Assembly (NCBI GenBank): GCA_000165345.1 | Contig: CM000431.1 | Span: forward strand, 576,001 to 640,000 | Length of the DNA stretch: 64,000 nt | Direction of reading: 5' to 3' | Part shown: positions 1 to 20,309 of the stretch, piece after piece | How positions within the stretch are numbered: the first letter of the stretch is position 1 | Layout: every line of letters starts with the position of its first letter | Notes under the pieces: model-generated | What the model was told of the DNA's origin: nothing | The model's input: only the letters and a program-made list of their open reading frames with translations | Database searches by the model: none | Translations under genes and position numbers: made by a program

Positions 1-3000
1 AATGAAAATATTTGCATTCCAAATAACTCCGGATTATGGGGATTAGCTAAATCAGCAAATCTTGAAATTAGTTCTTTATTAACAAACTTTAGCCAACCAA
101 TCAAGAGTGTGGATCTAGAAATTACAGATTTTAGTGATAATCAATATTTGAGAAAAACCATAGGAAGCTTAGTTCGATGGATAGGAAACTTTGAATATTC
201 ATCTCTAAAAGAAAAAGAAAATCTTATTTTCAAATTTGAAAGGGAATTTAGTATTACCTCCAAAAATATATATGTAAACAGAATAAATAAATTCCATAAG
301 CAAATTGTTGGGCCAGTTGAATTATTCATGCAAAATAGAGGTTCAATTTCTAACTTATCGTTAATAGAATCAGAGCCTATACAACTTGAAAAATTGAATG
401 ACTATGAAGTAGTTATGAGAGTGAAATCTATTGGATTAAATTTTAGAGATGTATTAAATGTTATGGGATTGTATCCCGGTGACCCTGGACCTCCCGGCGG
501 TGATTGTTCTGGTACTGTTGTCGCTGTTGGTGAAGGCGTTAAGCATATTAAAGTTGGTGATAATGTATTTGGAATTGCTCCTGGATGCTTAAAAACTTAT
601 GTTACCACTGATTCAAATTTGTTATGCAAAATTCCAAAAGGATTTACCTTCGAACAAGCTGCTGCGTTACCAGTTGTTGCAACTACAGTTGAATATTCTC
701 TTAAAGATATTGCGAATATTAAAAAAGGAGATATTGTTCTAGTTCATGCAGTTACTGGTGGCGTAGGATTAATGGTTGTTCAATATTGCAAAGCAATTGG
801 TGCTAAAGTATACGGCACAGCTGGAAGCGAATCTAAAGTTGAATATGCACTTTCTAATGGTGTTGAGAGGGTAAGTAGCTCGAGAAATGCTGATAAATTT
901 AAAGAGGATATGAAAGATTTAGAGGGAAAAGTTGATATTGTAATCAATTCATTGATCGAAGACTTTATTCCAAATTCTTTGAATTTATTGAAAAAAGGTG
1001 GTTGTTTTGTCGAATTGGGAAAAAGAGGAATATGGACAGAAGAAGAGATGAAAGAAAAGAGACCTGATATTAAGTACAAATGTGTTGCTGTTGATGTAAT
1101 GATGGAGGAAGATCCTTCTTGGTTTGGGGGAATGCTAACAAGAATAAAAAATTTGGCAGAAGAAGGAATAATCGAATCATTACCATTGAAGGTGTTTGAT
1201 ATGAGAGGTTCAGATGAGAATGGAATAGATGCATTCAGATATATGCAAAGAGCGCAACATATAGGAAAGGTTATTATTAAAATTCCATACTTAGCCGGTA
1301 TTGGAGATAATTCAATTCCAGAAGAATGCTTGATTACAGGTGGAAGTGGTTCTTTAGGTCTAGTTCTCACAGAGACCCTGCTTAATGAGGGTATTACAAA
1401 TATTTCTATAATTTCTAGATCAGGAATTGAATCACAATCAGATAGTATAAAAGCCAAATGGGAGAAACTATTTAAGAGAATTCTGAATAATAAAAATGGT
1501 AATAGTGGTATTAGATTCTTTAATATTGATATTGGCAACAAAGATTCAGTATATAAATTAATTAATACAGAGTTTAAAAACCTAAAGCATATATTCCATT
1601 TGGCAGGAGTACTTTCAGACTCAAACATCGAAACTCAAACTCGTGAAAGCATTGAGGAGGTATTTAAACCAAAAGCAATCGGTGCATGGAACTTACACAA
1701 CATCTGTGAAGAATTAGGGTTAAACAAAGAATTAAAGACATTTGTTATGTATTCTTCGATTGCATCAGGTTTAGGTAACTTTGGTCAAACAAACTACTCT
1801 GCAGCAAATTCTTGTTTAGATTCATTATCACAATATAGAGTAAGCAAAGGACTTAGCAGCAGAAGTATTCAATGGGGAGCTTGGGATGAGGATGGAATGG
1901 CTATGAATATAAGACAGCATTTGGGATTGGTAGGAATGAGCCCTATCTCCAAAACTACTGGGCAACAGGTAATATTTGATTTAATTACAACACAAATTTA
2001 CGAGGAAAATAGAAAGTCTGCGACAATAATGTGCCTTCCAATTAAATGGAAGACTTATATTAATACAATATATTCTGGAGAAAACATACCCCAGTTCTCA
2101 CTGGTAAATACGAATTTAAGAACTAAAAGGCAGCAAAATACAATATTATTGAAAATGAGTAAAGAAGAACGTGAAACATATATCGAGAAACAGATTATTT
2201 CTCTTTCAAAATCTATTCTTGGTGTTGAAATTAAATCACTGGACCAACCATTACAAGACATTGGAATCGATTCGCTTGCAGCACTTGAATTCAGAAACGC
2301 ATTATCAAAGAAATTTAACATTAAACTGTCAGCAACAACATTATTCGATTATCCTACAATTAGAGGAATTAAGGATCATATATCCGAGAAGCTTTCTGTC
2401 AAAGAGAGCATATACGAAACTAACAAGACTCAAATCTCGAACTTGATTCTTTCCCAAGACAATTTATCAGATGACAATGTTGGAGTTATTGCGGGATTAG
2501 CCTGCAGATTCCCTGGCGGATGCAATACTCCAGATACGCTCTGGAAATCTCTTATTAGAGGTTATTCGATAAATCCATTGTCTGGCAAAATGTTTAACTC
2601 AGTAGGCGGTGCCTTTTGTGCATCTAGAGAAATTCCAATTCAGAGGTGGAATCATAATTTAGTTTATAATGCAGATCCAGATAAAACGGGTAAATGCTAC
2701 TCTTACAAAGCATGTTTTATTGATTCAATAGACATGTTTGATAATTCCAAGTTTGGAATTACGAATATTGAGGCAAAACATATGGATCCTCAGCAAAGAA
2801 TTGTGCTAGAAACATGCTATGAGGCTCTAGTAGCCGCAAAAATTAAAGAAGAAACTCTAATTGGATTTCAAATGGGTGTATTTATTGGTTGTTGTTCAAA
2901 TGATTGGTCATTTTTACAAAGTAGAAAGGGAATGGCACCATTTACAGGGACTGGGGCTGCAAACACTACAATTTCAAACAGAGTTTCATACGTTTTTGGT

Positions 3001-6000
3001 ATGAGGGGTCCAAGCATGACAGTAGATACGGCATGTGCATCATCTCTCACTGCAGCATGCATTGCAATGGACAGTTTTAGAAACAAAGAGTGTAATGGAG
3101 CTATAGTTGGCGGAGTAAATGCTTTATTATCCCCGAACCTCTTCATTGCATTCTGCAAGGCTAGAATGCTTTCAGTAGATGGTAAATGCAAAACATTTGA
3201 CGCTTCAGCTGATGGTTATGTTAGAGGAGAAGGATGTGGCGCAATTGTAATTTTAAAGCAAAGTGAACAAAAGAAGCAAAATACTCCTATATTAGGAAGA
3301 ATAAAAGGTTGGGGATGCAATCATGTAGGGAGAAGCGCAAGCTTAACTGCTCCAAATGGTCCTGCACAAACATGCGTCATTAAAATGGCACTTAATCAAT
3401 CAAAATTAAACAGTTCAGATATTGATTACATTGAAACACATGGAACAGGAACAGCATTAGGAGACCCAATTGAGCTAGGTGCATTAAAAAGTGTTTTTGG
3501 AAGAAATGCAGATTATAAAAGATCAACTCCTTTAGTATTAGGAGCATTAAAAAGTAACATTGGGCACTTGGAGGGCGCAGCAGGTATTGCAGGATTAATT
3601 AAGCTGGTCTTAGTTTTAAAACACGAGACTGCAATTAGAATTGCCCATTTGACTAAAATTAATCCTCATTTAGATTTAGAAGACTTTAATGTCATTATAC
3701 CACAAAAAACCGTTTCATTAAAGTGTAATAAAAACAAACTTATTGGTGGGGTCAGTGGATTTGGATTTGGAGGATGTAATACTCACGTAATAGTGGAATC
3801 AACAGAAAAAAACAAATCTGAGGATATAGAGGCAGCTGATTTCTCGAAAAATCATATTTTGTTCGTATTTACAGGGCAAGGCTCACAGTATATCAATATG
3901 TGTAAGGGTATTTATGAAACTGAACCTATATTTAGAGAAAATATGAATTTATGTAATGAAATCGTTTCTAAAATTCTAAATATATCTCTTCTTGATATAA
4001 TCTATCCAATTGATGGTAATAAAGACGCTGAATTTAAAGCTATGAACATGCTAAATGATACTCGTTATGCTCAGCCAGCAATCTTTGCCGTTGAATATTC
4101 CCTAGCACAATTATGGATTTCTAAAGGTATAAAACCAGATTCAGTACTAGGACATAGCCTTGGAGAGTTTATTGCTGCGACTATTAGTCAAGTAATGACA
4201 ATTGAAGATGCATTAACTCTGGTCACACACAGAGCAAGTATCATGGCATCTACACCTGCTCTAGATGGAATCATGGTAGCCTGTAGACTCACTGAATCTC
4301 AAGTTGTTGATACAATTAAAAGATTCGGCCTCGAAGAATCTGCCTCTCTGGCAGCTGTTAATGGACAGAAAAGTGTCACTATATCTGGGAAAAAAGAGTC
4401 GGTATATAAGATTTTGGAGTATAATAATGTTGGTAGTAGATTCAGACGGCTAGATGTTTCTCATGCATTCCACTCTCCACTGGTCAGTGAAGCATCTGAC
4501 AAATTTAGCAAATTATTGGAAAACATCGAACTAAAAAAACCAACTGTTGAATTTATCTCAACCGTTACTGGAAAAAAAGAAATTGAATCAATATCGACTG
4601 CTAAATATTGGTCAAAACATATATTGAACACTGTTCGACTTTCGGATGCAGTTTATCACGCTATTGAATCTGTAAACTCAAGAATGACATTTATTGAGAT
4701 TACATCAAAGCCTATTCTTTCACAATTATTAAAAGCCCTAATACCTGTAAATAGTAGCCACATTTCAGTTAAATGCACATGCAAGCTGGTAAATTCTGAA
4801 ATTGACTTTATTCAACCTTTAGAGGAAATGCAAGAATTCGGTTCAGAAAATTCAAGTTTTACAAATCATGCTAATAACTTAGATGATGATTCTTGGAGGT
4901 TCAAACTCCTGAAACGAAGGCAAATTTCATGGAGTGATATTAGCCATCCAATAATTGCTCCTCTACATGACTTTAATGATATCGAATGGGTCAAGGAAAA
5001 TATATCCATAAGTAAGTCAAATGCAAGAGAACTTGTCGAAAAATTAGAATTTACCTGTATGATTTCACCAGAATTACTTGATTTGTTTGACAACCACAAA
5101 GTATTGGGACAGTCAATCCTCCCAGGAGCTGCCTTTGTCGATTTTATGGCAACAGTAGCATTGAATTATACAAAGTCGCAATTTACTTTAGGAGTAATTG
5201 GAGCAATGCCAGACTGGATTCAATTAAAGGGAATCTTCTTTAGAAACCCATTTATAATGTCTTCTGCAAAACAATACAAATATTTAAATACACAATTTGA
5301 TAGTCAAGACTATTCTGATGAAGATAATTCAAGCCGTAGTTCAGACTTTAATATTATTATGTCAAAAGGTAACAATTGCCAAATAAGCATTGAGTCTTCA
5401 TTGAAAATGGACGAAGAAACCGTTGTATATGCAACATGTGATGAAGTAGAATACGTATCAAGTATTGAGGCACAAACAAAAAGTTTGTGTATAATTTCTG
5501 AATGGCCAAGCAGTGAACTTATTTCAAACTCAAAAAAAGTTTCCCAAGAAGATATCTATGAAAAAATGTCAATTGCAGGTCTTCAATATGGTAGCAGGTT
5601 CAAAACTCTGAAAGAAATGTGGAAAGTTACTTCAAACTCCGCAGTAGGGATAATTCAAAGCGAGCTATTTACTAAAAATTGTGCAGAATCACCAGATAAT
5701 CTTGCAGTTTATGAATCAATAATGAATGAAAGAGGCTTTACAATACATCCGACTCTTTTGGATGGCGTATTGCATATGTGCGCATCTATACTTGGCGATC
5801 AATCAGATAAGGAGACATTTAATGAATTACACAAGCGAGCCACAATGGTACCAATAAGTATAAATAAATGCCTTATCACTTCTAAAATTGACACTTCAAA
5901 GTATATCAAGGGAGAAAAATATTGGGCTTTTGTTCAGCTCAAAAGTTCGGATAAGGACAGCGCAATAGTAAATGTTGCACTGAAAAGTATGAGTGGAGTT

Positions 6001-9000
6001 CCAATAGCAGTGCTTCTCGGAGTTTCACTTCGCTCTGTTAAAAACGGAGTGATTTCTACTCATACTATTAAACATGTAATTCCAAATGAGCTGTTATGGA
6101 GAATTGACTGGGATGAAGTTATTGAAAGCATTACTAATTCTGAAATAGTGTCGCTTCCAACCAAAGTCAATTGCGATAACACAGAAAATGAGTCCTATCA
6201 AGGGATAAACGCAAATCTGGTTGAAAAAAGAAAAGTTTTATTACTTACTAACTCTTGCAATATTAGTAAAAAAGAATTGTATTCCGAATATTTTACTGCT
6301 GATATTGTATGTGAAGCATCAAAACTATCTTTAGCTGAAATAGAGGCAACAATATATGGGAGAGATGATCAAGAATTGCCACCTTCTCCATCAAATGAAG
6401 CAAAGTATGACTTAATTTGTCTCCATATTCCCAATTCAGATAAGAATAAAGCTATTGTTTCATTATTGCCAGTATTATATCTTTGCAAAATTCTAAGATC
6501 AATGTTCGAAAATAAGGAAAGATTAATTCCACGTGTTAGAATAATTACTGAAAACATATTCAATGTAGATGGAATGAATCTTGAATTTAGAACAAATTCA
6601 GGTGTTGCTCCTTTCATTAAGAGCGCTAGACAAGAACTCGAGTTATTCTCTGATCAATCTGTTTCATTAGGATTAATTGATATAGAGACTGCAGAAGACT
6701 TAAATAAAGCTATAATTCTTTCATTTGTGAAAGATATACTTTGTTTCAAAAAAAGAGAAGATATTACTTCTAACGGCACACTTACAGAATCGCAACGTTT
6801 ATTTTTAAATACCGAATATGAGCCAGAGCTTGTGCTAAAAAAGAAAATTAAAGGTAAAGAAGATAACTGTGAAGCTCATTACAGAATAATTACTCCAAAA
6901 CTAGTCAGCTTAAGAGGCGAAGCAGCGATTATTGGTTCTTGTAAGTTAAATTTGAGTTCTCGCGGAGCGATAAATAATTTAGAGTTGTTACCTTTATCTA
7001 ATGAAGAAAGAAAATGTCCATCTGCAAATACTGTTGAAATTAGAGTAAGGTCAATCGGACTTAACTTTAGAGACGTATTAAATGTTATGGGATTGTATCC
7101 CGGTGACCCTGGACCTCCCGGCGGTGATTGTTCTGGTACTGTTGTCGCTGTTGGTGAAGGCGTTAAGCATATTAAAGTTGGTGATAATGTATTTGGAATT
7201 GCTCCTGGATGCTTAAAAACTTATGTTACCACTGATTCAAATTTGTTATGCAAAATTCCAAAAGGATTTACCTTCGAACAAGCTGCTGCGTTACCAGTTG
7301 TTGCAACTACAGTTGAATATTCTCTTAAAGATATTGCGAATATTAAAAAAGGAGATATTGTTCTAGTTCATGCAGTTACTGGTGGCGTAGGATTAATGGT
7401 TGTTCAATATTGCAAAGCAATTGGTGCTAAAGTATACGGCACAGCTGGAAGCGAATCTAAAGTTGAATATGCACTTTCTAATGGTGTTGAGAGGGTAAGT
7501 AGCTCAAGAAATGCTGATAAATTTAAAGAGGATATGAAAGATTTAGAGGGAAAAGTTGATATTGTAATCAATTCATTGATCGAAGACTTTATTCCAAATT
7601 CTTTGAATTTATTGAAAAAAGGTGGTTGTTTTGTCGAATTGGGAAAAAGAGGAATATGGACAGAAGAAGAGATGAAAGAAAAGAGACCTGATATTAAGTA
7701 CAAATGTGTTGCTGTTGATGTAATGATGGAGGAAGATCCTTCTTGGTTTGGGGGAATGCTAACAAGAATAAAAAATTTGGTAGAAGAAGGAATAATCGAA
7801 TCATTACCATTGAAGGTGTTTGATATGAGAGGTTCAGATGAGAATGGAATAGATGCATTCAGATATATGCAAAGAGCGCAACATATAGGAAAGGTTATCA
7901 TCAAAATTCCAACTCCTTTCAAATATTTAGAATTGGATACGGAAAATCATAAGTTAAACAACGTTGGTTCTGAAAAAGAAGATAGACACAACAATGAATA
8001 TGGCATTCATGTGATTACTGGAGGATTAGGAGGAATTGGAAGGATTATTATCAAGTGGATGTTAGAAGAAGGAGTTAGAAAGATTGCAATTTTATCAAGA
8101 AGCGCTAATAATGATTCTTTAAGAGATATCCCAGAAATAAAGGATTATTTGAATACAGATATTATTCAAATAGAATGCATAAAATGTGATGTTTCGATAT
8201 TGTCACAGGTAGAGAGTGCATTTAGGGAGATTTTAGTTAAATTTGGAGAAACGAACCAAATACATGGAATATTCCATGCTGCAGGTATTCTGATGGATGG
8301 AGCAATTGCTTCTCAAACAATGGAAATGATGGAGTCAGTATATGCACCCAAGGTATATGGAGCATGGAATCTACATGAGTGTTGTGAGAAGTTTGACTTG
8401 AATAAAAATTTGAAGCACTTCGTGATGTTTTCTTCAGTTGCATCATTACTGGGTAATTTTGGTCAAACAAACTACTCTGCAGCGAATTCTTGTTTAGATT
8501 CATTGGTTGAATATAGAAGAAATAAAGGAATGTGCGGAACTAGTATACAATGGGGTCCCTGGATTGAACAAGGAATGGCAATGAATATAAAACAACATTT
8601 AGAGAAGGTTGGAATGCATGGAATATCCAATGAAATGGGTATAAGAGTGATTAATGACGTGATCTTATATCAAAACACAGATTTAGATAAGAACTCATTA
8701 GGGAAATACCCAGTAATCACTTGCCAATCATTTAATTGGAATGTATATATGCGTCAATTATATTATAACTCAAAATATCCATCATTCTTCAAAGATGTGG
8801 TTGCATCAATGTCTACTGGAGAAGTAAAGAATATAGGAATGGATTTCAGGGGAATGAGTAAAGAGGAAGTGTACTCGTATGTTAAAGACTCAGTGCATAA
8901 TATAGTAGAACAGATTATTGGAATACAATCGTCAACTCTTGACTTGGACACGCCATTTTCAGAACTTGGGATGGATTCTTTGTCGGCAATTGAGTTGAGG

Positions 9001-12000
9001 AATGCATTAATTTCAAGATTTGGAATTAAGATATCTTCGACAGCATTGTTTGATTACCCAACATTGAGATCAATTATTCAGCATTTGACAGACTCTTTAT
9101 ATGTTTCAGAAACCCGAGACGCATTTTCTGACCTAGGAATGAGTATCTCAGAAAGAGAGTATTCAGTCGCAATAATTGGTGTTTCTTGTAGGCTTCCCGG
9201 TAGAGTAAAGTCATTTAACGATCTTTATGAAATTGTTTTGCTTAAAAGTAAGGATTGCATTACGGAAATTCCATTAGATAGATGGCCATTTGATTTATAT
9301 TATGACCCAGATCCAGATAATAGAAGCAAGTCATATGTAAACCAAGGTGCATTCATAACTGACATTGATCTATTTGATAATACTTTCTTTGGTCTTTCAT
9401 CAACTGAGGCTACAAATGTTGACCCTCAACAAAAATATATGCTTGAGGTAGCATATGAAGCAATGTATAATTCTGGAATTACAAAACGTTCGCTAACTAG
9501 CATCAAAAAAACAGCAAAAACAGGTGATGATCCTGTATTAATGGGAGTTTTTATTGGCTGTTGCAATACGGATTGGCACTTCCTTCAAGCAAAGTTTGGC
9601 TTTGAAAACTTCACTTCTTATACTGGTTCTGGCGGTGCAAGCTCTCTTGTTTCTAATAGAGTATCATATTCGTTTGGATTTAGGGGGCCTTCGCAGACCA
9701 TAGACACTGCATGCTCTTCGTCTCTTGTTGCGATGGATGCAGCTCTAAAGTCGTTGAAAGAAGGCTCTTGTCATACTGCATTAGTTGGAGGCGTAAACTT
9801 AATGCTAAGCCCGCATTTATTTGTAGCATTTTGCCGTGCAAGAATGCTTTCTCCTGATTGTAGATGTAAAACATTTGACGCCTCTGCAAATGGATATGTT
9901 AGAGGAGAGGGATGCGGCGCAATTTTATTAACTAAGAGATCAGAAATAGGTGGAAAAAAAATTAGGCCAATTGCATATGTGTTGGGATCTGCAACAAATC
10001 ATAATGGGAGATCTGCAAGCCTCACAGCTCCAAATGGTCCCTCACAAACAGAAGTTATTCAAAATGCCCTAAGAAATGCTAGATTAACTCCTAATGATAT
10101 TGATTACCTAGAATCTCATGGAACAGGAACTCCTCTTGGAGATCCTATAGAGTTTGGTGCGTTAAAGACGGTTTTTGGAAACAAAAAGGATATTAAGAGA
10201 AGTCAACCTCTTATTCTTGGAGCTCTGAAAACGAATATTGGTCATCTTGAGGGCGCAGCAGGTGTTTCAGGACTACTAAAGTTAATCTTGGTGTTGAAAA
10301 ATCGTATTGCACCAAAAATATTGCATTTCCAAAAACTTAATCCTCATATTGATACTGAGAACTTCGACGTTGAATTCCCAACTGAGTTAAAACCTATTAT
10401 TTCTAATAAATCAAAATTAGTTGGTGGTGTGAGCTCATTTGGGTTTGGAGGATGTAATTCCCATGTAATTTTGGAATCTGCCTCTGCCAACGAATTGAAT
10501 ACTGAAAGTAGCCAAAATAAAAACTATCCATATTTGATATTTGCGTATACTGGCCAAGGATGCCAATATATTAATATGTGCAAGCAACTGTATGATACGG
10601 AAGAAGTTTTTAGAAATGAAATGGATAAATGCAATGAACTTTTATATCCAATATTGGGGAGATCATTAATTTCAACAATATATTGTGAAAAAACTATGGA
10701 GAGTGAGAAGTTGATAAATCATACATCAATTTCTCAACCAGCAATATTTTCAATTGAATATTCATTAACTAAACTGTGGGAATCAAAGGGTATAGTTCCA
10801 TCTGCAGTAATGGGTCATAGCCTTGGAGAATTTGCAGCAGCAGTTACTAGTGGGATCTTATGCCTCAAAGATGCCATCACTCTAGTTGCAAGGAGAGCAG
10901 AAATTATGGCGTCTCTTCCTCAGAATGATGGAATAATGGTTGCTTGCAGGGTTTCAGAAGATCAAGTATTAGATTCTATTAATAAATTGAACTTAAAAGA
11001 TTCTGCAGCAGTTGCTGCAATAAATGGTCCAAAGAGCGTAACGATATCAGGAAGCAGGAGTTCAGTAATGCAGGTCCTGAATAATTTGGGTATGGAAGAC
11101 AGATATAAACAACTTGATGTTTCTCATGCATTCCATTCTCCTTTGGTTAGCTCTGCTGAAGAAAAGTTTGAAAAAGTAATAGAAAATATTCAATTTTTCG
11201 AGCCAAAATTAACATTCTTTTCTTCTGTAACGGGTAATATTGAATCTAAATTGTTAATAGAAAATAAATATTGGGCACAACATATTATACATTCTGTTAG
11301 ATATTATGATGCACTTGAGACTGCAATTTCCACAGATGAAGAAAACATAGCAATTATCGAAATTGGACCTAAGTCTGTTCTTACCTCGATGGGCAAACAA
11401 GCAGTAGGAGGCATTCAATTAGTACAAAGCTCAAATGAAAATATTTCAAATAATGAATTGACATGGATTCCAACAATTGATAATTCAAAATCAAATACAA
11501 TTGATTTCAATGATGCGCTAAAAGCTGCTCGGGAATATATAAAATATATTTCAGAAAGCGTTTGTGTTCATAAATGGAACCACTCTAGGTTCCATTGGGC
11601 AGATTTGACATCTGTCCACCCCTTATTGGGAAAGTTTTATTCATCAATTTCAGATGAAAATTATCTTGCTTATTCCACTGATATGCTAAAATCTAAAGTA
11701 TTTAAAAACATTGTAGAAGATCATGTTATTTTTGATACAAATATTATTCCCGCAGCAGCATTGATTGAGGCATCTGCATGCGCAGCATTTAAATTACAAA
11801 GGTCTGAAAAGTTCCCATCTAAATACGTCGAAATGGATTCAATGGATATTGAAAAGCCATTAGTATCAAATCAAGATGAAACTACATCTGAAATGGAAGT
11901 CTTTGTTGCAAAAAGTGGAGCAATTCAAATAAGGAAAAAATGCATTTCCGAAGCATTTGAATATGAAGAAGAATTTTCTGGACCACAAATAATTGCCAAT

Positions 12001-15000
12001 GATACAGTATTTAGTAATAGTAGAATTTACCATCATGCATCTATTTCAAACTCTAGAATACTTAGCAAGGATGAAGTAGATAAACAATGTTTCCCAAATT
12101 TAGTGGATTATTTAGAAAAGTATTCATCAAAAGATACAATGGAAGTCCCCATTGACAATATTTACAAAATGATGAATGAAATTGGTCTACAATATCAAAA
12201 AAATTATCAATGCCTTAAAACTGTAAAAGTAAAAATTGATAATAGCAACGATGAAAAAAAAATAAAGAGTTCAGGAAGCAATCAGATAAATGAGGTATTC
12301 TGCTATGTTAAGAGGCCAATAAGTGATTTTGACCTAACTGAGCTTAGGATTCACCCTGGAATGCTTGATTCAGTATTTCAAGCATCCTCAGTTTTGTTTG
12401 CCTCTGATGAGTTATTAGAGGGCAAAGATACGACAAAAAATAAGAGAGGACATGTTGCAATGGCTCCAATTGGATTCACTAAGTGTTTTTATGGAAGAAT
12501 ACAACATAATTCTGATGTTTGGGGTCTAGTGAAATTAAATCGATTTGAAAAAAAAGGAAATATAGCATTTATTGATGTAACTTTGTGGGATAGCAAAACA
12601 AATATTTTGGCAGCGCATTTCCAAGATTTAATTTTAAAAGGATTTTCGAACGCAGCATCGTTACTGTCCCAAGAAGTCAGAATTCCAAACCAGTTTTTGT
12701 GGAGAACTTATAATAAAAAGATAGTAGATAGAACTAATTATATTGAAAATAGCAGTACATTTGAACAAGAAAATAAAGAAGATCAAGATAAAGAGTTCAA
12801 CAGTGAAGACTCCGATCATGATAACCAAATCCAAAAGATTCTTATCTTTGGAATACCAACTGTAATTAAGGAATTGATTTGTAGTAAAATGGACAATAAA
12901 TACAAAAAGATTTCAACCACATTTATTTGTTTAGAAGAAGATCTAACGATTGACCTGATTGATCAGAAAATACAAGAAGAAAACTGGTCTGCTATGTTTT
13001 ATTTAGGTGGTTTAATGGATAATCTCTCAAGTAAGCAAGTTATGGGCGATATTTTAAAAATATCGCAGGTAATTTCAACTATTTCTGTATCTATTACAAC
13101 CGCACCATTTGTTTGTTTAACTTCATTTAATGATTGCAAAGAAGATGGGAACATTCCTAGACATTCAGGAATTAAAGGTTTTGTGAAAACAGCTAGAGTT
13201 GAACTTGAAAATGTCATAGGAAAATCAATAAACATTTCTCATATTGAGTGCAATTCGAGTTTGGTAAACGATCCAGAAACTCTTATGAGGACAATAAGTT
13301 ACATAGCCTCAATATATGAAGGAAAGATTGAAGAGGAAATTACTTTGGAAAGAGATTTAACTATATCTGAAAGTGGAATTTATGCCCCCAGATTAGAAAG
13401 TATTAATTTCCCTGTTTTTGGTGCAATTAAATTAACAATGTCATCTAGGGGAGCAATTGGAAACCTTAAATTCAAGCCACAACCACAATCTGAAAGAGTA
13501 AATCCACCTGCAAATACTGTTGAAATTAGAGTAAGGTCAATCGGACTTAACTTTAGAGACGTATTAAATGTTATGGGATTGTATCCCGGTGACCCTGGAC
13601 CTCCCGGCGGTGATTGTTCTGGTACTGTTGTCGCTGTTGGTGAAGGCGTTAAGCATATTAAAGTTGGTGATAATGTATTTGGAATTGCTCCTGGATGCTT
13701 AAAAACTTATGTTATCACTGATTCAAATTTGTTATGCAAAATTCCAAAAGGATTTACCTTCGAACAAGCTGCTGCGTTACCAGTTGTTGCAACTACAGTT
13801 GAATATTCTCTTAGAGATATTGCGAATATTAAAAAAGGAGATATTGTTCTAGTTCATGCAGTTACTGGTGGCGTAGGATTAATGGTTGTTCAATATTGCA
13901 AAGCAATTGGTGCTAAAGTATACGGCACAGCTGGAAGCGAATCTAAAGTTGAATATGCACTTTCTAATGGTGTTGAGAGGGTAAGCAGCTCAAGAAATGC
14001 TGATAAATTTAAAGAGGACATGAAAGATTTAGAGGGAAAAGTTGATATTGTAATCAATTCATTGATCGAAGACTTTATTCCAAATTCTTTGAATTTATTG
14101 AAAAAAGGTGGTTGTTTTGTTGAATTAGGAAAAAGAGGAATATGGACAGAAGAAGAGATGAAAGAAAAGAGACCTGATATTAAGTATAAATGTGTTGCTG
14201 TTGATGTAATGATGGAGGAAGATCCTTCTTGGTTTGGAGGAATGCTAACAAGAATAAAAAATTTGGTAGAAGAAGGAATAATCGAGTCATTACCATTGAA
14301 GGTGTATGATATGAGAGGTTCAGATGAGAATGGAATAGATGCATTCAGATATATGCAAAGAGCGCAACATATAGGAAAGGTTATCATCAAAATTCCAACT
14401 CCTTTCAAATATTTAGAATTGGATACGGAAAATCATAAGTTAAACAACGTTGGTTCTGAAAAAGAAGATAGACACAACAATGAATATGGCATTCATGTGA
14501 TTACTGGAGGATTAGGAGGAATTGGAAGGATTATTATCAAGTGGATGTTAGAAGAAGGAGTTAGAAAGATTGCAATTTTATCAAGAAGTGCTAATAATGA
14601 TTCTTTAAGAGATATCCCAGAAATAAAGGATTATTTGAATACAGATATTATTCAAATAGAATGCATAAAATGTGATGTTTCGATATTGTCACAGGTAGAG
14701 AGTGCATTTAGGGAGATTTTAGTTAAATTTGGAGAAACGAACCAAATACATGGAATATTCCATGCTGCAGGTATTCTGATGGATGGAGCAATTGCTTCTC
14801 AAACAATGGAAATGATGGAGTCAGTATATGCACCCAAGGTATATGGAGCATGGAATCTACATGAGTGTTGTGAAAAGTTTGAATTGAATAAAAATTTGAA
14901 GCACTTCGTGATGTTTTCTTCAGTTGCATCATTACTGGGTAATTTTGGTCAAACAAACTACTCTGCAGCGAATTCTTGTTTAGATTCATTGGTTGAATAT

Positions 15001-18000
15001 AGAAGAAATAAAGGAATGTGCGGAACTAGTATACAATGGGGTCCCTGGATTGAACAAGGAATGGCAGCAAATCTTAAACAACATTTAGAGAAGGTTGGAA
15101 TGTATGGCATATCCAATGAATTGGGTATTCGTGTTTTGAACGACATTCTATGCTTTGTATCAAAAAGTAGCTCTGTTATTGGTTGTCAGTCACTGAAATG
15201 GGATACGTTTATGCGCCGTTACAATACGATACCAACATTTTTAAGTGAAGTCGATTACAGTTCTCAGGGTAGATCACAAGGTCGTGTTGACATAAGCAAG
15301 CTGTCTGACGAGGAATTGGTTGTTGTCATTGCTCAAGTTGCTCAACAGTGTGCTAGTTCTCCGACATTACCAAGCCCAGATACTGTTTTGTTAGATTTAG
15401 GATTGGATTCATTGGGAGCTGTTGAATTCAGGAATTCAGTACTTGAAATGACAGGAGTTAAATTGCCGCAGACACTTGTTTTTGAAAACCCTACAATATA
15501 TGCAATTTCTATGTATGTAAGGGATCAAAATTCAGGAAACTCTACAAAATCAGATTCTAAAAAACATTCCCAGACTTCAAACGAACAAGCAAAGATGACA
15601 ATTGAGCAGTGGCTTCTATCTTCACTCAAACAGTCAGAAAGGTATATTTTATATGCTGAAGCTTTTGAAAAAAAATACCAAACAATCAGTAATTTAATTA
15701 CTGAGACTGATATTATTAGTGCATTAGAAGAGTTGGGAGTTGAAAATAATCAGGATTATGATCTATTATATGTTTCTTGGAATGAATTAATTTCTTCTGA
15801 AGAGGAAAATAGTAAGAAGCAAAATGATAGCAATAGCAAAAAACTTGAACAGGAGTTAATATTCGATCCTATTGCGGATGTAGAAGAGATCAAAAATTCC
15901 ATGAAATTAGATTTGGATGGGATATCAACAACAACTGACCCATCAGAGTTCAAAACCGCACTTTTGACAGGTGTAACAGGATTTGTTGGTAGAATATTGC
16001 TCGTGAAACTAATTGAAGAGTTTAAGAATATGCAGATTGTTTGTCTTGTAAGAGCAAGCAGCTCTGAAAAAGGCTTAGAAAGAATAATTAATGTTTGTGA
16101 AGAGGCAGAAGTGTGGAATCCAACCTATGCTTCTAGGATTATTGTCGAATGTGGAAACTTCGAAGAGGAGTATTTAGGACTTTCAGAAGAGAGATATTAT
16201 GAATTATGTAAAGAAATCGACGTTGTTTATCATATTGGAGGTGATGTTAATCTATTAAGTAATTACAAGAGATTAAGAAAAACAAACACTCTTTCACTTG
16301 TTGGTATAATAAATTTTTGTACAACTATCAAGCTTAAGCACTTGCATTTCTCTTCTACACTTGGACAGTTTCCAGCATTTTTTGCGGTATTTACCAGGGA
16401 GTTTGAAAATGCAGTTGTTAAGGAAACAGAAGGGCCATCTACGAGAGAAATGAGCAGATTGTTTCCTCCTACAAGACAAGGGTATCCTTGGAGTAAGTGG
16501 GCAGCTGAACAAATATTAGAAACTGCTCATCAACAAGGACTTCCACTTTCAATTTACAGACTGCCAAATACATATATTGCATCAGATACAGGTTATACAA
16601 ACAAAACTGATTATGCAACAGCTTTATTGATCGCTTCAATTTTGGAGGGTATGTTCCCTATTGGTTCATCAACTGCGCCATTGACACCTGTTAATACAAT
16701 ATGTGAAATAATAATATCTGCATCTAAAAAGAAAGAAAGGAAGCATTGGAGATATAACTTATTAGACACAAGAATTTTAGGAAAAAAACATGTTGAAGCT
16801 TGGGCATCTCAATTAGGGCTAGGAAATTATAAAGGCGTTGCTATTGATGAATTCTTCAGTGCAATTAAAAGTAGAGGGCCAGAAAGCCCAATTTTCAAAT
16901 TTGTACCATTAATGCAATACTGGAGGCACTATTGGTTTGATAATACTGAAAGAACTCAACCTTTTCCAGTAGATACATCGAATGTTTCTGAAGATATGCC
17001 TGAAATTTCATGGCCACCGTTGGAGATTACTTTTCAAAACTCATTTTTATACTGCGCAAAAAGAGGTTATTTCCCATCAAACTCTTCTTCAATTTCCTTC
17101 ACTCCAATTAAATGTTACAGCGATGCTTTAAATGAAATTAAAGCAGAATTAAGTTTAAGAAATGTTAATTTCAACCAGAATAAGTATGATTTTATTTGCA
17201 GAAAAATGCAAAAAAATGCAGACTCGATTTACGATTCATTAAAAAAAGTTTCGCTCAATTTCTGTGCTAAATATTCTTACTACATACTTCTGAAGCAATC
17301 TATAGTAAATCAATATATTGTTCAAGAGTCCCTCAATGATTCAATTTTAGAAAAGTTTAAAATGATGGATTGCTACTTTATTACGGGAACATCGTTTGAG
17401 GAAATATTGGAGTTGAGAAGAGTAATCAGAAAACTACTAAATAATTATAATGAATTAAAATTTGTTGACATTGCTTGTCCTTATCTTCCAACGAAGAATT
17501 CAAGAAGACTTATTTTAGAACAACTAAAAATCGCAACATCTATTTTACCATTAAAAAGATTCGAAGCTGTGGATTTGGATGAAATATTGACAGACGACTC
17601 CATTTTGTTAGAAATGTTTATGTTTGCTCCGTTTACCTTACCATTGATATATGGAAAAGAGTATTTTGAAGAATACAAAAATAAAATTACAGGTTGTTCA
17701 GAGGTAATGGAAGCATATTCATCGTTTAAAAATTACATTATTCAAACTCTAATAAAGAATAATTACAATACTGAATATCCGATTATTTTTAGTTCTCCTT
17801 TCCATTTACCTTTTGTAAAAGAAATTTTACAGATTTTTGAGAACTCTAAAATTATTGTTGTTGATAATAAACCAGATAATTCGACCATTCAAGGGAAGTT
17901 GTCAATGGTAAAATCTTTAAAATCAAAATATACGAATCTAGATGTTAGCGAAGAAGAAAATTCAGAGGTATATTTGCTAGACATCCTTGAGGAAATGAAG

Positions 18001-18138: not shown

Positions 18139-18184
18139 ATTAGAAATGATGTTCGAACTAGTTAGATTTCTGTTTTAAAATTAT

Positions 18185-19339
18185 TTATTCAAAAGTTTCA
18201 TTTGAAAATAATAATGACGCAGCTAATTCAGTATTTCCATTTGTAGCTCTTAATGCATTAATTACCTGGCTTTCAGAAAACCCTAGTGATAAAAGTTGAA
18301 GTTTTTTCCCCTGTTCAAAGCATTGATCATATTCATTATTTGAATTTATTTGACTAATTTCACTATTTATTTCGGATTCAGATAAGAATTGTACCTTTTC
18401 ATCTCCAATAATTAGTGCATTTTGATGCAAGTCAATACAACATTGATACCTTTTAAGTAAATCCAATCCAAATAGGAAATCCACATGACTTTCTTCAAGT
18501 ACTGTTATTGAGAATGGAAAGAAGGAATTTCCAATTTTCATTTGAGCAACGTGTATTTTACCAACAATTTTACTTGTGCCCACACCTTGTGCAATTCCAC
18601 TAAACCTATAGTCTATTAACCTCACGAGGTTGCACTTTTCTGCACATTTTTTAGACATAATTGTTGTTTGCGCACCACTATCAACAAACGCTTTAATTGA
18701 GATTCCATTAACTTCTGCATTTATATATAGCATGTGAACTTGCGTAAAACTTTCTGGTAAATGGTCTTGCGCCAAAATTAAATTTTCTTCAACATTTTGT
18801 TTTCTTACTTGCTCTTCAATTAACCTTTGATATTCTGGGCTTAAAGGGTCCAAATTATACAAATTTGAGCTTGAATTTGAACTAGAAGAAATAGAGTTCA
18901 GATTTCCGGAAAAGTAGTCATTTTTTATTAGTTCTGTAAAACTTTTAATATCATCTTTATCAATTGAATCTCTATATTTACTTGATTTTGAGTAGTATAC
19001 TGATTTTAATGATTGATCTTCTTTAATTTTTGTGAAAAGCTCTTTTGAAAGCAATTGAATCAGATTTTCACGGTCATTCAAAGAAAAATTAGAATTTTCA
19101 AAGGTATTTTTATTGGTTTTTTCTGATAATACAAATATTGAGCCTTCATTTACAATATCAGATAATACGAATCCATCATTTTTCAAAATTTTACCTTCAA
19201 TTGAGAGCTCGTAATTCTTAAAACTATCTAAGTTAAGTTCAATTTCAATAAGCGATTTTAAAACCTCAACAGTAGTTTCTTCATGGATTTCAACTGAGAT
19301 GAGCTCTCCTGTTACGCTATAGAAAATATTCACTTTCAT
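18185..19339 (-). CDS. DDI1: DNA-damage-inducible protein 1 (Ddi1)-type shuttle factor: N-terminal ubiquitin-like domain, retropepsin-like aspartyl protease, C-terminal UBA
   Basis: ATG at 19339. Retroviral-type protease motif FVDSGAQTTIMS; UBL-like N-terminus; UBA-like C-terminus ...QVINALRATNGNTELAASLLF. Confidence 0.8.
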   Translation of the reverse strand: MKVNIFYSVTGELISVEIHEETTVEVLKSLIEIELNLDSFKNYELSIEGKILKNDGFVLSDIVNEGSIFVLSEKTNKNTFENSNFSLNDRENLIQLLSKELFTKIKEDQSLKSVYYSKSSKYRDSIDKDDIKSFTELIKNDYFSGNLNSISSSSNSSSNLYNLDPLSPEYQRLIEEQVRKQNVEENLILAQDHLPESFTQVHMLYINAEVNGISIKAFVDSGAQTTIMSKKCAEKCNLVRLIDYRFSGIAQGVGTSKIVGKIHVAQMKIGNSFFPFSITVLEESHVDFLFGLDLLKRYQCCIDLHQNALIIGDEKVQFLSESEINSEISQINSNNEYDQCFEQGKKLQLLSLGFSESQVINALRATNGNTELAASLLFSNETFE

Positions 19340-19362
19340 TTTATTTATTTACAAATCTTCGA

Positions 19363-19370
19363 TGGCGGGC
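19363..19370. promoter_or_regulatory. TGGCGGGC box upstream of DDI1
   Basis: gatggcgggcatgcaacgcactcgagc is a GC-rich island about 25 nt upstream of the DDI1 ATG (minus strand). Confidence 0.3.
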
Positions 19371-19553
19371 ATGCAACGCACTCGAGCTGTTATTTGCACA
19401 CTTAAAATCAAAGTGGCAAAGAAAAAAACCTAGTGGGAAGTTAAGTTCAATAAAAAGTAATTGATCAGAGCAAGTATAGCAATCTAAAATAAATACAATT
19501 TTAAGCTATTAAAATATTATGCGTACGATAACCGATCTTTTTCAAAATAAATC

Positions 19554-20309
19554 CTACTCGGCGCTTGCAAGGTCATCTATGTATTTCTCGACACGCTCGT
19601 TGAGCAAATTTATTTGTTTTTCAGGAACTATAGAAAATTGGAAATCCGATCCAGGGCCAATGAAAGCCATTTCTAGTTCAAGGTTTTTTGATGCTCCTTC
19701 CTCTCTAGATTGTATTATCACTCTTGCAGCCTCGTATAACGCGTCTTCCTCGGATAAATTTTTCTCCATTAGTTTTTCTAGGTCAGTTCTTGCAAACTGT
19801 CTACCTTTACCAACCGCCATTGCGCAGTATTTATAGCATGAGCCGGATGGATGAATACAATATAGCTCAACACCTCTATCCTGGTCAAGCCCCCCCAGGA
19901 GTATTGAACAACCGAACGGTCGAACGGAACCATAAAGAGTAAAGTTATGCATATACATTGCAATTCTCTCTGCTAACACGCGTATTGGTATAGGATTCCC
20001 ATAGATTTTTTGATAATTTAACGACTCTGAACGTGCTATTGAAACGATCTTGTTCGAATCCGTAACAAATCCAGCAACACAACAACCAATCTGATTATCT
20101 ATCGCAAAAACTCTTCTGTTAGTACCTGCTACCATCATTTTGCTAGCAACATATTTGTCTACAGCAAAAACAATACCAGAGTTGTAAATCATTGCAATAG
20201 TTGTTCCACTATTGTCAACAGCTTTGTTTGCATATTCGACTTGGAAGACACGACCATCAGGAGAAAAGGTAGAAACTGATGAGTCATATCCAGATCCTAC
20301 ACTAGTCAT
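19554..20309 (-). CDS. PSMA3: 20S proteasome subunit alpha type-3
   Basis: [31 protein letters not shown]... aligns residue by residue with human PSMA3 ([31 protein letters not shown]). The track ORF begins at an upstream GTG (20321); the first ATG is at 20309. Confidence 0.9.
   Translation of the reverse strand: [251 protein letters not shown]

Follow-up and report, generated by a model that had tools for sequence, protein, structure and literature searches.

In the mycolactone PKS of Mycobacterium ulcerans, an evolutionarily very young and plasmid-borne system, nearly all domain types are near-identical. This repetition of near-identical domain DNA, with recombination between modules (PMC2569948), is regarded as an extreme case (PMC4256081) of the behavior of bacterial modular PKSs and NRPSs, such as those of the rapamycin and erythromycin families. 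Internal recombination in these synthases homogenizes homologous domains between modules, trees follow cluster or species instead of module position, and some domain types escape (PMC4256081, PMC1592344). GRINS are intragenic repeats of ~1 kb with >80-90% identity that occur in assembly-line synthases and are tied to gene conversion. Eukaryotic examples have been reported from amoebae and choanoflagellates; the paper that describes GRINS makes no mention of Cryptosporidium (PMC8256042). Classical concerted evolution, as in rDNA, polyubiquitin, and the ubiquitin of Plasmodium (PMC10457151), leaves copies alike within species and different between species, synonymous sites included.

The sequence studied here is CpFAS1, the type I fatty acid synthase of Cryptosporidium, and its near-identical tracts are best explained as a new instance of a known process, concerted evolution as in bacterial modular PKSs. 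Unlike those systems, CpFAS1 is a eukaryotic fatty acid synthase gene without introns, from a parasite that is haploid and sexual; the homogenized unit is ER or ER+KR and not KS or AT, the tract edges are the same across the genus, and the evidence comes from DNA and synonymous sites across species and isolates. In contrast to the mycolactone PKS, near-identity in CpFAS1 is confined to ER and KR and is an old, genus-wide state, with the tract sequence turning over. rDNA and polyubiquitin differ in another respect, since the CpFAS1 repeats are domain parts within one ORF, with 5-6 kb of diverged coding DNA between one and the next. That intervening sequence must stay intact, and therefore only non-crossover outcomes persist. 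We found no paper in the open-access literature on intragenic identity in CpFAS1; the original description (Zhu et al. 2000, Mol Biochem Parasitol) may mention it. Among megasynthases, CpFAS1 offers a eukaryotic case of domain-selective concerted evolution that is clean and can be quantified.

We analyzed a 64-kb stretch of DNA (the window), whose first 18.1 kb (1-18138, plus strand) hold the 3' part of the intronless CpFAS1 gene. A previous reading of the letters alone (the sequence-only reading) had described an 18-kb ORF. Frame 1 is indeed open from base 1, but the left window edge truncates the gene, which is annotated at 8243 aa in full. A Pfam scan gave the domain order ER-KR-ACP, KS-AT-DH-ER-KR-ACP, KS-AT-DH-ER-KR-ACP, and thioester reductase, followed by a C-terminal tail; the loading unit and the KS-AT-DH of module 1 lie beyond the window. 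This architecture agrees with the published description (PMC2995488), with three KS-AT-DH-ER-KR-ACP modules and a C-terminal thioester reductase in a single intronless ORF on C. parvum chromosome 3. Positions 8185-20000 were 100% identical in DNA to C. parvum CP044420.1, and the neighboring proteins were exact matches to C. parvum records.

Three tracts on the plus strand carry the repeats. The ER tract of module A, the core of a three-way repeat, spans 451-1274 (blast extent 415-1287; ER Pfam domains at aa 134-429). The ER+KR tract of module B spans 7022-8580 (blast extent 7006-8642), with its ER part at 7075-7898 and its KR part at 7899-8580, and that of module C spans 13508-15066 (blast extent 13492-15128). 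Self-blastn of 1-18200 aligned 7006-8642 with 13492-15128 at 98.41% identity (26 mismatches in 1637 nt, no gaps), 415-1287 with 7039-7911 at 98.40% (14/873), and 415-1287 with 13525-14397 at 97.25% (24/873). Chance similarity was dismissed because the E-values were 0, and no repeats besides these tracts were found within the 64-kb window. Site by site, the ER core of A differed from that of B at 2 and from that of C (13561-14384) at 12 of 824 nt. Over the 1559 nt of the ER+KR tracts, B and C differed at 13 sites, nine of them synonymous, with 10 in ER and three in KR. The near-identity of ER segments, synonymous sites included, and the ~1.5 kb of identity between B and C were therefore as the sequence-only reading had claimed, with coordinates correct to within a few bases; the KR segments of B and C, which it had called identical, are near-identical.

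Outside the tracts, the modules have diverged. Amino acid identity between modules was 56% for KS, 49% for AT, 24% for DH/linker, and 29-41% for the ACP region, which corrects an earlier figure of roughly 40-50% for KS, AT, and DH and upholds their clear divergence; self-alignment gave them nothing comparable to the identity of the tracts. The KR of module A (1275-1940) provides an internal contrast. It takes no part in the homogenization, having 48.5% amino acid and 57% nucleotide identity to KR-B/C, and the ER-KR linker of module A is 19 residues shorter than those of B and C. At identical residues, third-position identity was 97-99.6% inside the tracts versus 45-59% outside, where the flanks are saturated. 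In bins of 20 codons, identity stepped from ~50% to 100% at each tract edge. The edges of the module B tract lie within about 5 residues of the ends of the Pfam domains (ER, aa 2342-2637; KR, aa 2668-2855). The edges are sharp, coincide with ER/KR domain ends, and stand at the same position across the genus. The left edge of copy A (415-450) is soft, with the protein kept and 10 of 36 nt differing from B/C; at five of those 10 sites copy A retains the state of C. meleagridis B/C. The right edge of the B/C tract (8581-8616, paired with 15067-15102) is variable.

The few differences among the copies form a mosaic shared by subsets of copies. Derived states were common to A and B only at 7328 and 7641 and private to C at 7752, 7800, and 7820. 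Together with the discrete tracts and diverged flanks, this is the pattern of concerted evolution. We consider it very probable that the three ER and two ER+KR segments of the C. parvum gene evolve in concert through recurrent intragenic gene conversion.

Near-identity of this kind could also be produced by assembly or polishing that made diverged copies alike, and the region demonstrably defeats assemblers. The right tract edge ends short-read contigs in nine datasets from seven species, with contigs starting there (at WIEQGMA) in C. ubiquitum, C. bovis, C. andersoni, C. canis, C. ryanae, one C. hominis assembly, and three Logan assemblies. C. hominis UdeA01 has 100 N where tract C should be, and the C. 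tyzzeri assembly lacks 1419 nt at tract C; the C. tyzzeri gene model is 7770 aa long, without the module 3 ER-KR. Only fragment proteins are available for C. ubiquitum, C. bovis, C. andersoni, C. canis, and C. ryanae. Five partial proteins predicted from the ends of short-read contigs had no exact match in the protein collection searched. The C. meleagridis ORF is intact, yet it is divided into several gene models, and in two isolates the C. canis ER is one stand-alone contig of 833-856 nt. The region is thus the trap for short-read assembly that had been anticipated. However, a contig break at a tract edge requires reads that are near-identical across copies. Tract C is present in three chromosome-level C. 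parvum assemblies and in a C. hominis TU502 contig, and specific differences recur, with those at 7752, 7800, and 7820 found in all three C. parvum copies of C. The copies show 2-13 defined differences instead of exact identity, and their structure is reproduced across independent assemblies, species, and contig breakpoints, which also speaks against a single collapsed assembly. The near-identity of the ER and ER+KR copies is confirmed, and an artefactual origin of it is extremely improbable. In a weaker form of this explanation, the residual differences and isolate variants would be polishing errors.

The weaker form bears on variation among isolates. Over 11.8 kb, 15 of the 16 SNPs relative to the window fell at sites that differ between copies (8/9 in HLJ and 7/7 in 43IA8), and at each of these one copy's state was replaced by the other's. 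In 43IA8, every ER change gives copy C the state of the other two copies (a 2:1 majority), which is also what mis-polishing would produce, and these "conversion SNPs" could in part be errors of short-read polishing of long-read assemblies. The edge variant at 8581-8589 takes two forms: C. parvum IOWA, isolate 43IA8, and C. hominis have a B-specific sequence, and C. parvum HLJ, C. tyzzeri, and C. meleagridis have the C state. If assembly words of 31 nt are assumed for the Logan contigs, the contig starts at 15037 and 15073 each lie 30 nt before the first expected B/C difference and fit the two edge variants, which would make this the sole isolate variant backed by separate short-read assemblies and would argue against polishing as its source.

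Comparison among sister species, which the sequence-only reading had proposed, showed that copies group by species and not by module. In the ER core (824 nt; ER-A represented by C. parvum only), within-species mismatches numbered 2-12 in C. parvum, 1-6 in C. hominis, and 2 in C. meleagridis, the last with its copies taken as the assembly resolved them. Between species, mismatches numbered 24-28 for C. parvum against C. hominis, 27-32 in comparisons with C. tyzzeri, and 71-74 in those with C. meleagridis, regardless of the modules compared. KR mismatch matrices had the same pattern. Bootstrap values for species groups were 100/100 for ER and 99.8/99.6 for KR, and those for module groups were 0, among C. 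parvum, C. hominis, C. tyzzeri, and C. meleagridis, with module B of C. hominis and C. tyzzeri coming from assemblies damaged here and possibly being a consensus of copies. Paralogues within a species are thus more alike than orthologues between species. B and C of C. meleagridis were 98.85% identical over 1657 nt, with the same edges, whereas identity between the C. parvum and C. meleagridis tracts was 89.9-91.0% for orthologous and paralogous pairs alike. The substitutions that separate species are present in all copies compared, as is a 3-nt indel separating C. parvum from C. meleagridis, found in both copies compared. Protein word-index searches with ER-KR and DH/linker queries returned no Cryptosporidium protein and missed even P0001 (91% over 316 aa), so that the comparison drew on a minority of the ER-B copies of other species. 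Outside the genus, ER copies were 94-96% identical in amino acid sequence within a Chromera velia protein and 100% identical within a Cardiosporidium protein, which also fits concerted evolution; the loci of Gregarina niphandrodes and Toxoplasma gondii were too gapped for a test of homogenized tracts.

These comparisons also decide between recurrent conversion and a single recent duplication or replacement of ER or ER+KR that left too little time for divergence. Within one genome the two would look the same, and differences of 0.2-1.5% can be read as a short elapsed time. C. meleagridis has the same tracts with the same edges, however, and contig breakpoints imply tracts in C. canis, C. ubiquitum, C. 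bovis, C. ryanae, and C. andersoni. Tract sequences differ by 3-19% between species and are 98-100% identical within each, and a single-event history would need the same replacement to have happened separately in each lineage, which is recurrent conversion under another name. A single event is therefore very improbable. Of the two explanations offered by the sequence-only reading, recurrent intragenic conversion limited to the reducing domains gains support from clustering by species at four depths with the same edges; a very recent segmental replacement, as one event, cannot give rise to that pattern.

Selection on the nucleotide sequence itself, through codon choice, mRNA structure, or an embedded element, might hold the ER segments identical. 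Two features could be cited for it: the ER tracts contain antisense ORFs of 172-282 aa, and tract GC skew is 0.33-0.36 versus 0.09 +/- 0.06 in the rest of the gene. The skew is almost wholly predicted by amino acid composition and the codon usage of the gene (expected 0.28-0.32; observed z = 1.4-2.0). No family match was found for the antisense ORFs, which we treated as chance occurrences. Synonymous change between species is faster in the tracts than in the rest of the gene. Between C. parvum and C. meleagridis, dS was 0.38-0.47 in the tract and 0.15-0.28 in the rest of the gene (Fisher p 8e-9); between C. parvum and C. hominis, 0.106-0.122 and 0.066 (p 0.002); and between C. parvum and C. 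tyzzeri, 0.115 and 0.045-0.075 (p 0.00015). dN was unchanged. Because synonymous divergence in the tracts is approximately twice that in the rest of the gene, constraint at the nucleotide level is excluded as the source of their synonymous-site homogeneity, and we give such selection next to no credence. Synonymous sites in the C. canis comparison were saturated in tract and non-tract sequence alike (pS 0.64-0.67) and are uninformative for rate; even so, the ER of that species forms the single stand-alone contig noted above in both isolates, as expected if its copies are kept alike.

Compositional skew also raises the question of whether the tracts are GRINS-type elements like those of bacterial assembly-line PKSs, in which repeats with strong nucleotide skews recode domains and favor conversion. 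By definition, GRINS are >500 bp long, match a second region of their synthase at >80% DNA identity, and have mean absolute GC and TA skews >0.15 that correlate with each other (PMC8256042). The CpFAS1 tracts have the required length and identity, and their mean absolute GC skew in 150-nt windows is 0.34-0.36. Unlike in GRINS, however, their mean absolute TA skew (0.105-0.119) equals that of the rest of the gene and stays under 0.15, and the two skews correlate negatively (r -0.45 to -0.66) and not positively. Third-position GC skew is 0.21-0.24 in the tracts versus a gene mean of 0.06 +/- 0.12, with the total skew just 1.4-2.0 SD over expectation; protein composition, rather than synonymous recoding, probably accounts for most of it. 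A GRINS-type origin is accordingly improbable. GC-biased conversion was considered and rejected, GC3 being 0.22-0.28 in the tracts and 0.245 in the gene.

Recurrent conversion would work by non-reciprocal homologous recombination, with patches of one copy overwriting a second copy that lies 6.5 or 13.1 kb off within the gene. The starting point may be a break in a copy, or a fork that stalls there, followed by strand invasion into a paralogous copy and non-crossover resolution. Crossover or single-strand annealing between the direct repeats would remove or double an entire module, and selection presumably purges such products. Cryptosporidium has a mostly haploid cycle and lacks non-homologous end joining (PMC12368253), for which reason the cis paralogue may often be the sole repair template. 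Conversion would stop at flanks too diverged to pair, and the edges would therefore maintain themselves, much as in the "trap" model originally formulated for bacterial PKS and NRPS domains (PMC4256081). For transfer events themselves, support is indirect and comes from the isolate SNPs at sites where the copies differ, some of which may be polishing errors. ER and KR probably tolerate homogenization since all three modules carry out the same full reduction. AT domains likewise catalyze one and the same reaction in all modules but escape homogenization; functional interchangeability alone therefore cannot explain which domains are affected.

The tracts have practical consequences. Genus-wide edges at domain ends show at which natural junctions ER-KR exchange is tolerated, a point relevant to swapping reductive loops in engineered PKSs, and the tracts may serve as a record of homologous repair in an organism without end joining. 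In Cryptosporidium genomics, the tracts are where many public assemblies and gene models break or become corrupted. Variant calls from short reads within them will mix inter-copy differences with true SNPs, and such calls may imitate recombination signals in population studies.

The twofold synonymous rate is not predicted by unbiased neutral conversion. One conceivable but doubtful reading is that homogenization of the ER-KR unit is more than passive: repair between copies is mutagenic or fed by a further donor, such as the CpPKS1 ER domains, and is combined with a fixed-edge conversion trap that predates the Cryptosporidium radiation and also operates in Chromera and Cardiosporidium. If so, mutagenic repair or a further donor would turn the tracts into the part of the gene with the fastest synonymous change, in a parasite restricted to homologous repair. 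Such repair and an ancient trap, taken together, would speak for selection in favor of reductive domains that can stand in for one another in alveolate FAS1.

Frame 1 of the window sequence (33% G+C) is open from base 1 through a stop at 18138. A Pfam scan of this ORF gave the domain order ER-KR-ACP, KS-AT-DH-ER-KR-ACP, KS-AT-DH-ER-KR-ACP, thioester reductase (NAD_binding_4), and C-terminal tail. The C-terminal 1002 aa share 96% identity with a C. meleagridis protein and 57-84% identity with "type I fatty acid synthase" fragments of other Cryptosporidium species. Five neighboring proteins match C. parvum records exactly, and C. parvum CP044420.1 is 100% identical to window positions 8185-20000, which identifies the ORF as the 3' 18.1 kb of CpFAS1, a 25-kb synthase with three modules and a terminal reductase (PMC2995488). 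The 18-kb open frame described in the sequence-only reading is present, but it is not a complete gene; the window truncates it, and the whole protein is annotated at 8243 aa.

Modules 1, 2, and 3 are denoted A, B, and C. Exactly three long self-matches were found by self-blastn, between modules B and C (7006-8642 versus 13492-15128, 98.4% identity), A and B (415-1287 versus 7039-7911, 98.4%), and A and C (415-1287 versus 13525-14397, 97.3%). Compared site by site, the 824-nt ER cores (451-1274, 7075-7898, and 13561-14384) differ at 2 positions between A and B, 12 between A and C, and 10 between B and C. The ER+KR tracts of B (7022-8580) and C (13508-15066) differ at 13 of 1559 nt, with nine of the differences synonymous. 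Only three of the 13 lie in the 682-nt KR part, and the KR segment reported as identical in B and C is thus shared but near-identical. The earlier description also needs correction in that KR-A is excluded from the homogenized tract, having 48.5% aa identity to KR-B/C. Elsewhere outside the tracts, aa identity between modules is 56% for KS, 49% for AT, 24% for DH/linker, and 29-41% for the ACP region. At identical residues, third-position identity is 97-99.6% within the tracts versus 45-59% outside. In 20-codon bins, identity steps from ~50% to 100% at the tract edges, with a short gradient (92%, 85%, then 52%) only at the right edge of the B/C tract, and the edges lie at most ~5 residues from the Pfam boundaries of the ER and KR domains. 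Together, these comparisons confirm, with small corrections, both the coordinates and the claim of near-identical ER segments beside diverged KS, AT, and DH domains.

Orthologous regions were compared from C. meleagridis (CM077709.1), two further C. parvum-type assemblies and one identical to the window, five C. hominis regions (including LN877949.1, assembly UdeA01), and C. tyzzeri (PYHZ01000003.1). The C. meleagridis B/C tract spans 1657 nt at 98.85% identity, with edges as in C. parvum. Identity of the window to C. meleagridis in the tracts is 89.9-91.0% for orthologous and paralogous copy pairs alike, and both copies carry the 3-nt indel that separates the two species. Mismatches within species number 2-12 (C. 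parvum), 1-6 (C. hominis), and 2 (C. meleagridis) in the 824-nt ER core, and 0-3, 0-3, and 0, respectively, in the 682-nt KR core. Between species, they number 24-28 (ER) and 18-20 (KR) for C. parvum versus C. hominis, 27-32 and 14-20 for C. tyzzeri versus either of these, and 71-74 and 59-62 for C. meleagridis versus the others, independent of the module pair compared. To the question raised in the sequence-only reading of whether copies cluster by species or by module, the answer was species: species groups were recovered in 100/100% (ER) and 99.8/99.6% (KR) of 500 bootstrap neighbor-joining trees, and module groups in 0% for both.

Selection on the nucleotide sequence itself could in principle keep the tracts alike, but between species the tracts (7022-8580 and 13508-15066) diverge about twice as fast at synonymous sites as the rest of the gene. 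dS between C. parvum and C. meleagridis is 0.46-0.47 (ER) and 0.38 (KR) versus 0.15-0.28 (Fisher p 8e-9); for C. hominis it is 0.106-0.122 versus 0.066 (p 0.002), and for C. tyzzeri 0.115 versus 0.045-0.075 (p 0.00015). dN does not differ between tracts and the rest of the gene. The raised synonymous divergence rules out nucleotide-level selection. The doubled rate is itself an excess that simple neutral conversion leaves unaccounted for, because unbiased neutral conversion predicts an ordinary rate. The excess rises with divergence and is not a fixed offset. The tracts show no increase in GC3, and there is thus no sign of GC-biased conversion.

Site states, polarized with other species as outgroups, form a mosaic. 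Copies A and B alone share the derived states at 7328 and 7641; copy C has derived states of its own at 7752, 7800, and 7820 in each of the three C. parvum assemblies. Over 7053-7074, C. meleagridis states persist in copy A, and B and C share newer ones. Right-edge sites 8581-8589 are B-specific in the C. parvum isolates IOWA and 43IA8 and in C. hominis, and carry the C state in isolate HLJ, C. tyzzeri, and C. meleagridis. Over 11.8 kb, eight of nine HLJ SNPs and all seven 43IA8 SNPs relative to the window fall at copy-differing sites, each being a swap to the other copy's state; the 43IA8 swaps cluster in two patches (13715-14019 and 14589-14883). Recent conversion could account for these swaps, and so could errors of short-read polishing. 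For the edge variant only, separate support comes from Logan contigs built from C. parvum read sets. Two of these (L008 and L009) have their starts at 15037 and 15073, in each case 30 nt ahead of where the first B/C difference is predicted for one of the two right-edge types (IOWA or HLJ), and the L009 type was found in six samples. The starts fit assembly with 31-nt words; if this assumed word length is right, the raw short reads contain both right-edge variants.

For more distant Cryptosporidium species, the evidence consists of contig ends rather than resolved copies. The 3'-end contigs of C. ubiquitum, C. bovis, and C. andersoni start at "(W)I(E/D)QGMAA" or "MAATLK," the position of the right edge of the C. 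parvum B/C tract; a C. ryanae fragment starts at "GMAATLK," a C. canis contig 16 codons before that edge, and one C. hominis assembly and three Logan assemblies at window positions 15037-15073. In two C. canis isolates, ER occupies a contig of its own (833 and 856 nt). These contigs cover window-equivalent 7057-7889 and 431-1286, which corresponds in extent to the three-way ER tract, and are 80-81% identical to each of the three C. parvum copies. Synonymous sites are saturated between C. parvum and C. canis (pS 0.64), which excludes retained ancestry as the source of within-species identity.

In practice, the tracts affect both assembly and variant calling in Cryptosporidium, and the warning of an assembly trap was well founded: contigs break at the tract edge, and tract C is lost in C. 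tyzzeri PYHZ01000003.1 (one N joins window-equivalent 13712 to 15132; FAS annotated at 7770 aa rather than 8243 aa) and in C. hominis UdeA01, where 100 N replace 13683-14894. In C. meleagridis (CM077709.1; bases 1-13930 of the region compared), the reading frame runs uninterrupted to one terminal stop; the annotation nevertheless cuts it into several gene models with limits inside each ER tract, the first beginning in ER-A and breaks falling in ER-B and ER-C.

Recurrent non-reciprocal homologous recombination between direct repeats is the best-supported explanation of the tracts. Species clustering and fine structure favor the intragenic gene conversion proposed from sequence alone. Tracts range from a few hundred bases up to ~1.5 kb. 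Resolution would proceed without crossover, since loss or duplication of a module would follow from crossover or single-strand annealing. The cis paralogue may serve as repair template; Cryptosporidium is mostly haploid and lacks end joining (PMC12368253). Edges may be self-maintaining because pairing cannot extend into such diverged flanks, as modeled for bacterial synthases (PMC4256081). That ER and KR are functionally interchangeable is plausible but does not suffice as an explanation, since AT domains show no homogenization.

The CpFAS1 tracts are a case of concerted evolution confined to particular domains of a eukaryotic fatty acid megasynthase. They resemble bacterial synthase domains, for which concerted evolution is well documented (PMC4256081, PMC1592344, and PMC2569948), but the host gene is a eukaryotic fatty acid synthase. 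No published account of intragenic identity in CpFAS1 was found in the open-access literature. GRINS are defined as repeats of >500 bp and >80% identity with mean absolute GC and TA skews >0.15 (PMC8256042). Absolute GC skew is 0.34-0.36 in the tracts versus 0.12-0.17 elsewhere in CpFAS1, nearly all of it predicted from the amino-acid sequence, and absolute TA skew (0.105-0.119) is below the GRINS threshold and equal to that elsewhere in the gene; we therefore did not apply the GRINS label.

Within the ER tracts, the minus strand contains ORFs of 172-282 aa (780-1628, 7404-7922, and 13890-14408); a search for family matches found none, and chance is their most likely origin. Downstream of the reductase, the C-terminal tail (16714-18135; ORF residues ~5572-6045) aligns with the post-reductase sulfotransferase domain of Eimeria, Vitrella, Gregarina, and Cardiosporidium orthologues. 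The orthologues' "GLNRSGTTF" and "HRDP," which we take to be PAPS-binding motifs, are degenerate in Cryptosporidium ("ITGTSF" and "VDNKPD"), and Pfam gave only a sub-threshold Sulfotransfer_3 match (E 0.006). The tail is probably a decayed sulfotransferase-like domain, of which no published description was found.

Orthologues outside the genus were collected by a profile-free search of representative proteins, and copies were compared within each protein. ER and KR copies share 94-96% and 89-95% aa identity in Chromera velia (Cvel_19857), 100% and 100% in Cardiosporidium cionae (KAF8817832.1), whose contig begins and ends inside the repeat, and 60% and 42-47% in Gregarina sp. Poly1; ER copies share 60% in Rhytidocystis pertsovi and 53% in one further transcript. 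Against other organisms, the Chromera and Cardiosporidium copies reach only ~60% identity. With copy identities ranging from 42 to 100%, reductive-domain homogenization is patchy across alveolates, on evidence at the protein level. Visual inspection suggests near-identity also for the KS domains, and for part of the DH-to-ER linker, in Chromera modules 1 and 2. In Toxoplasma gondii TgCatPRC2 (KQ983279.1), in segments 2944-4167 and 8659-9524 of the region examined, assembly gaps occupy the same KS-to-AT position of two successive modules. After each gap come 168 nt that encode AT, and these share 98% identity between the modules, which hints at a homogenized KS/AT segment in a Toxoplasma megasynthase.
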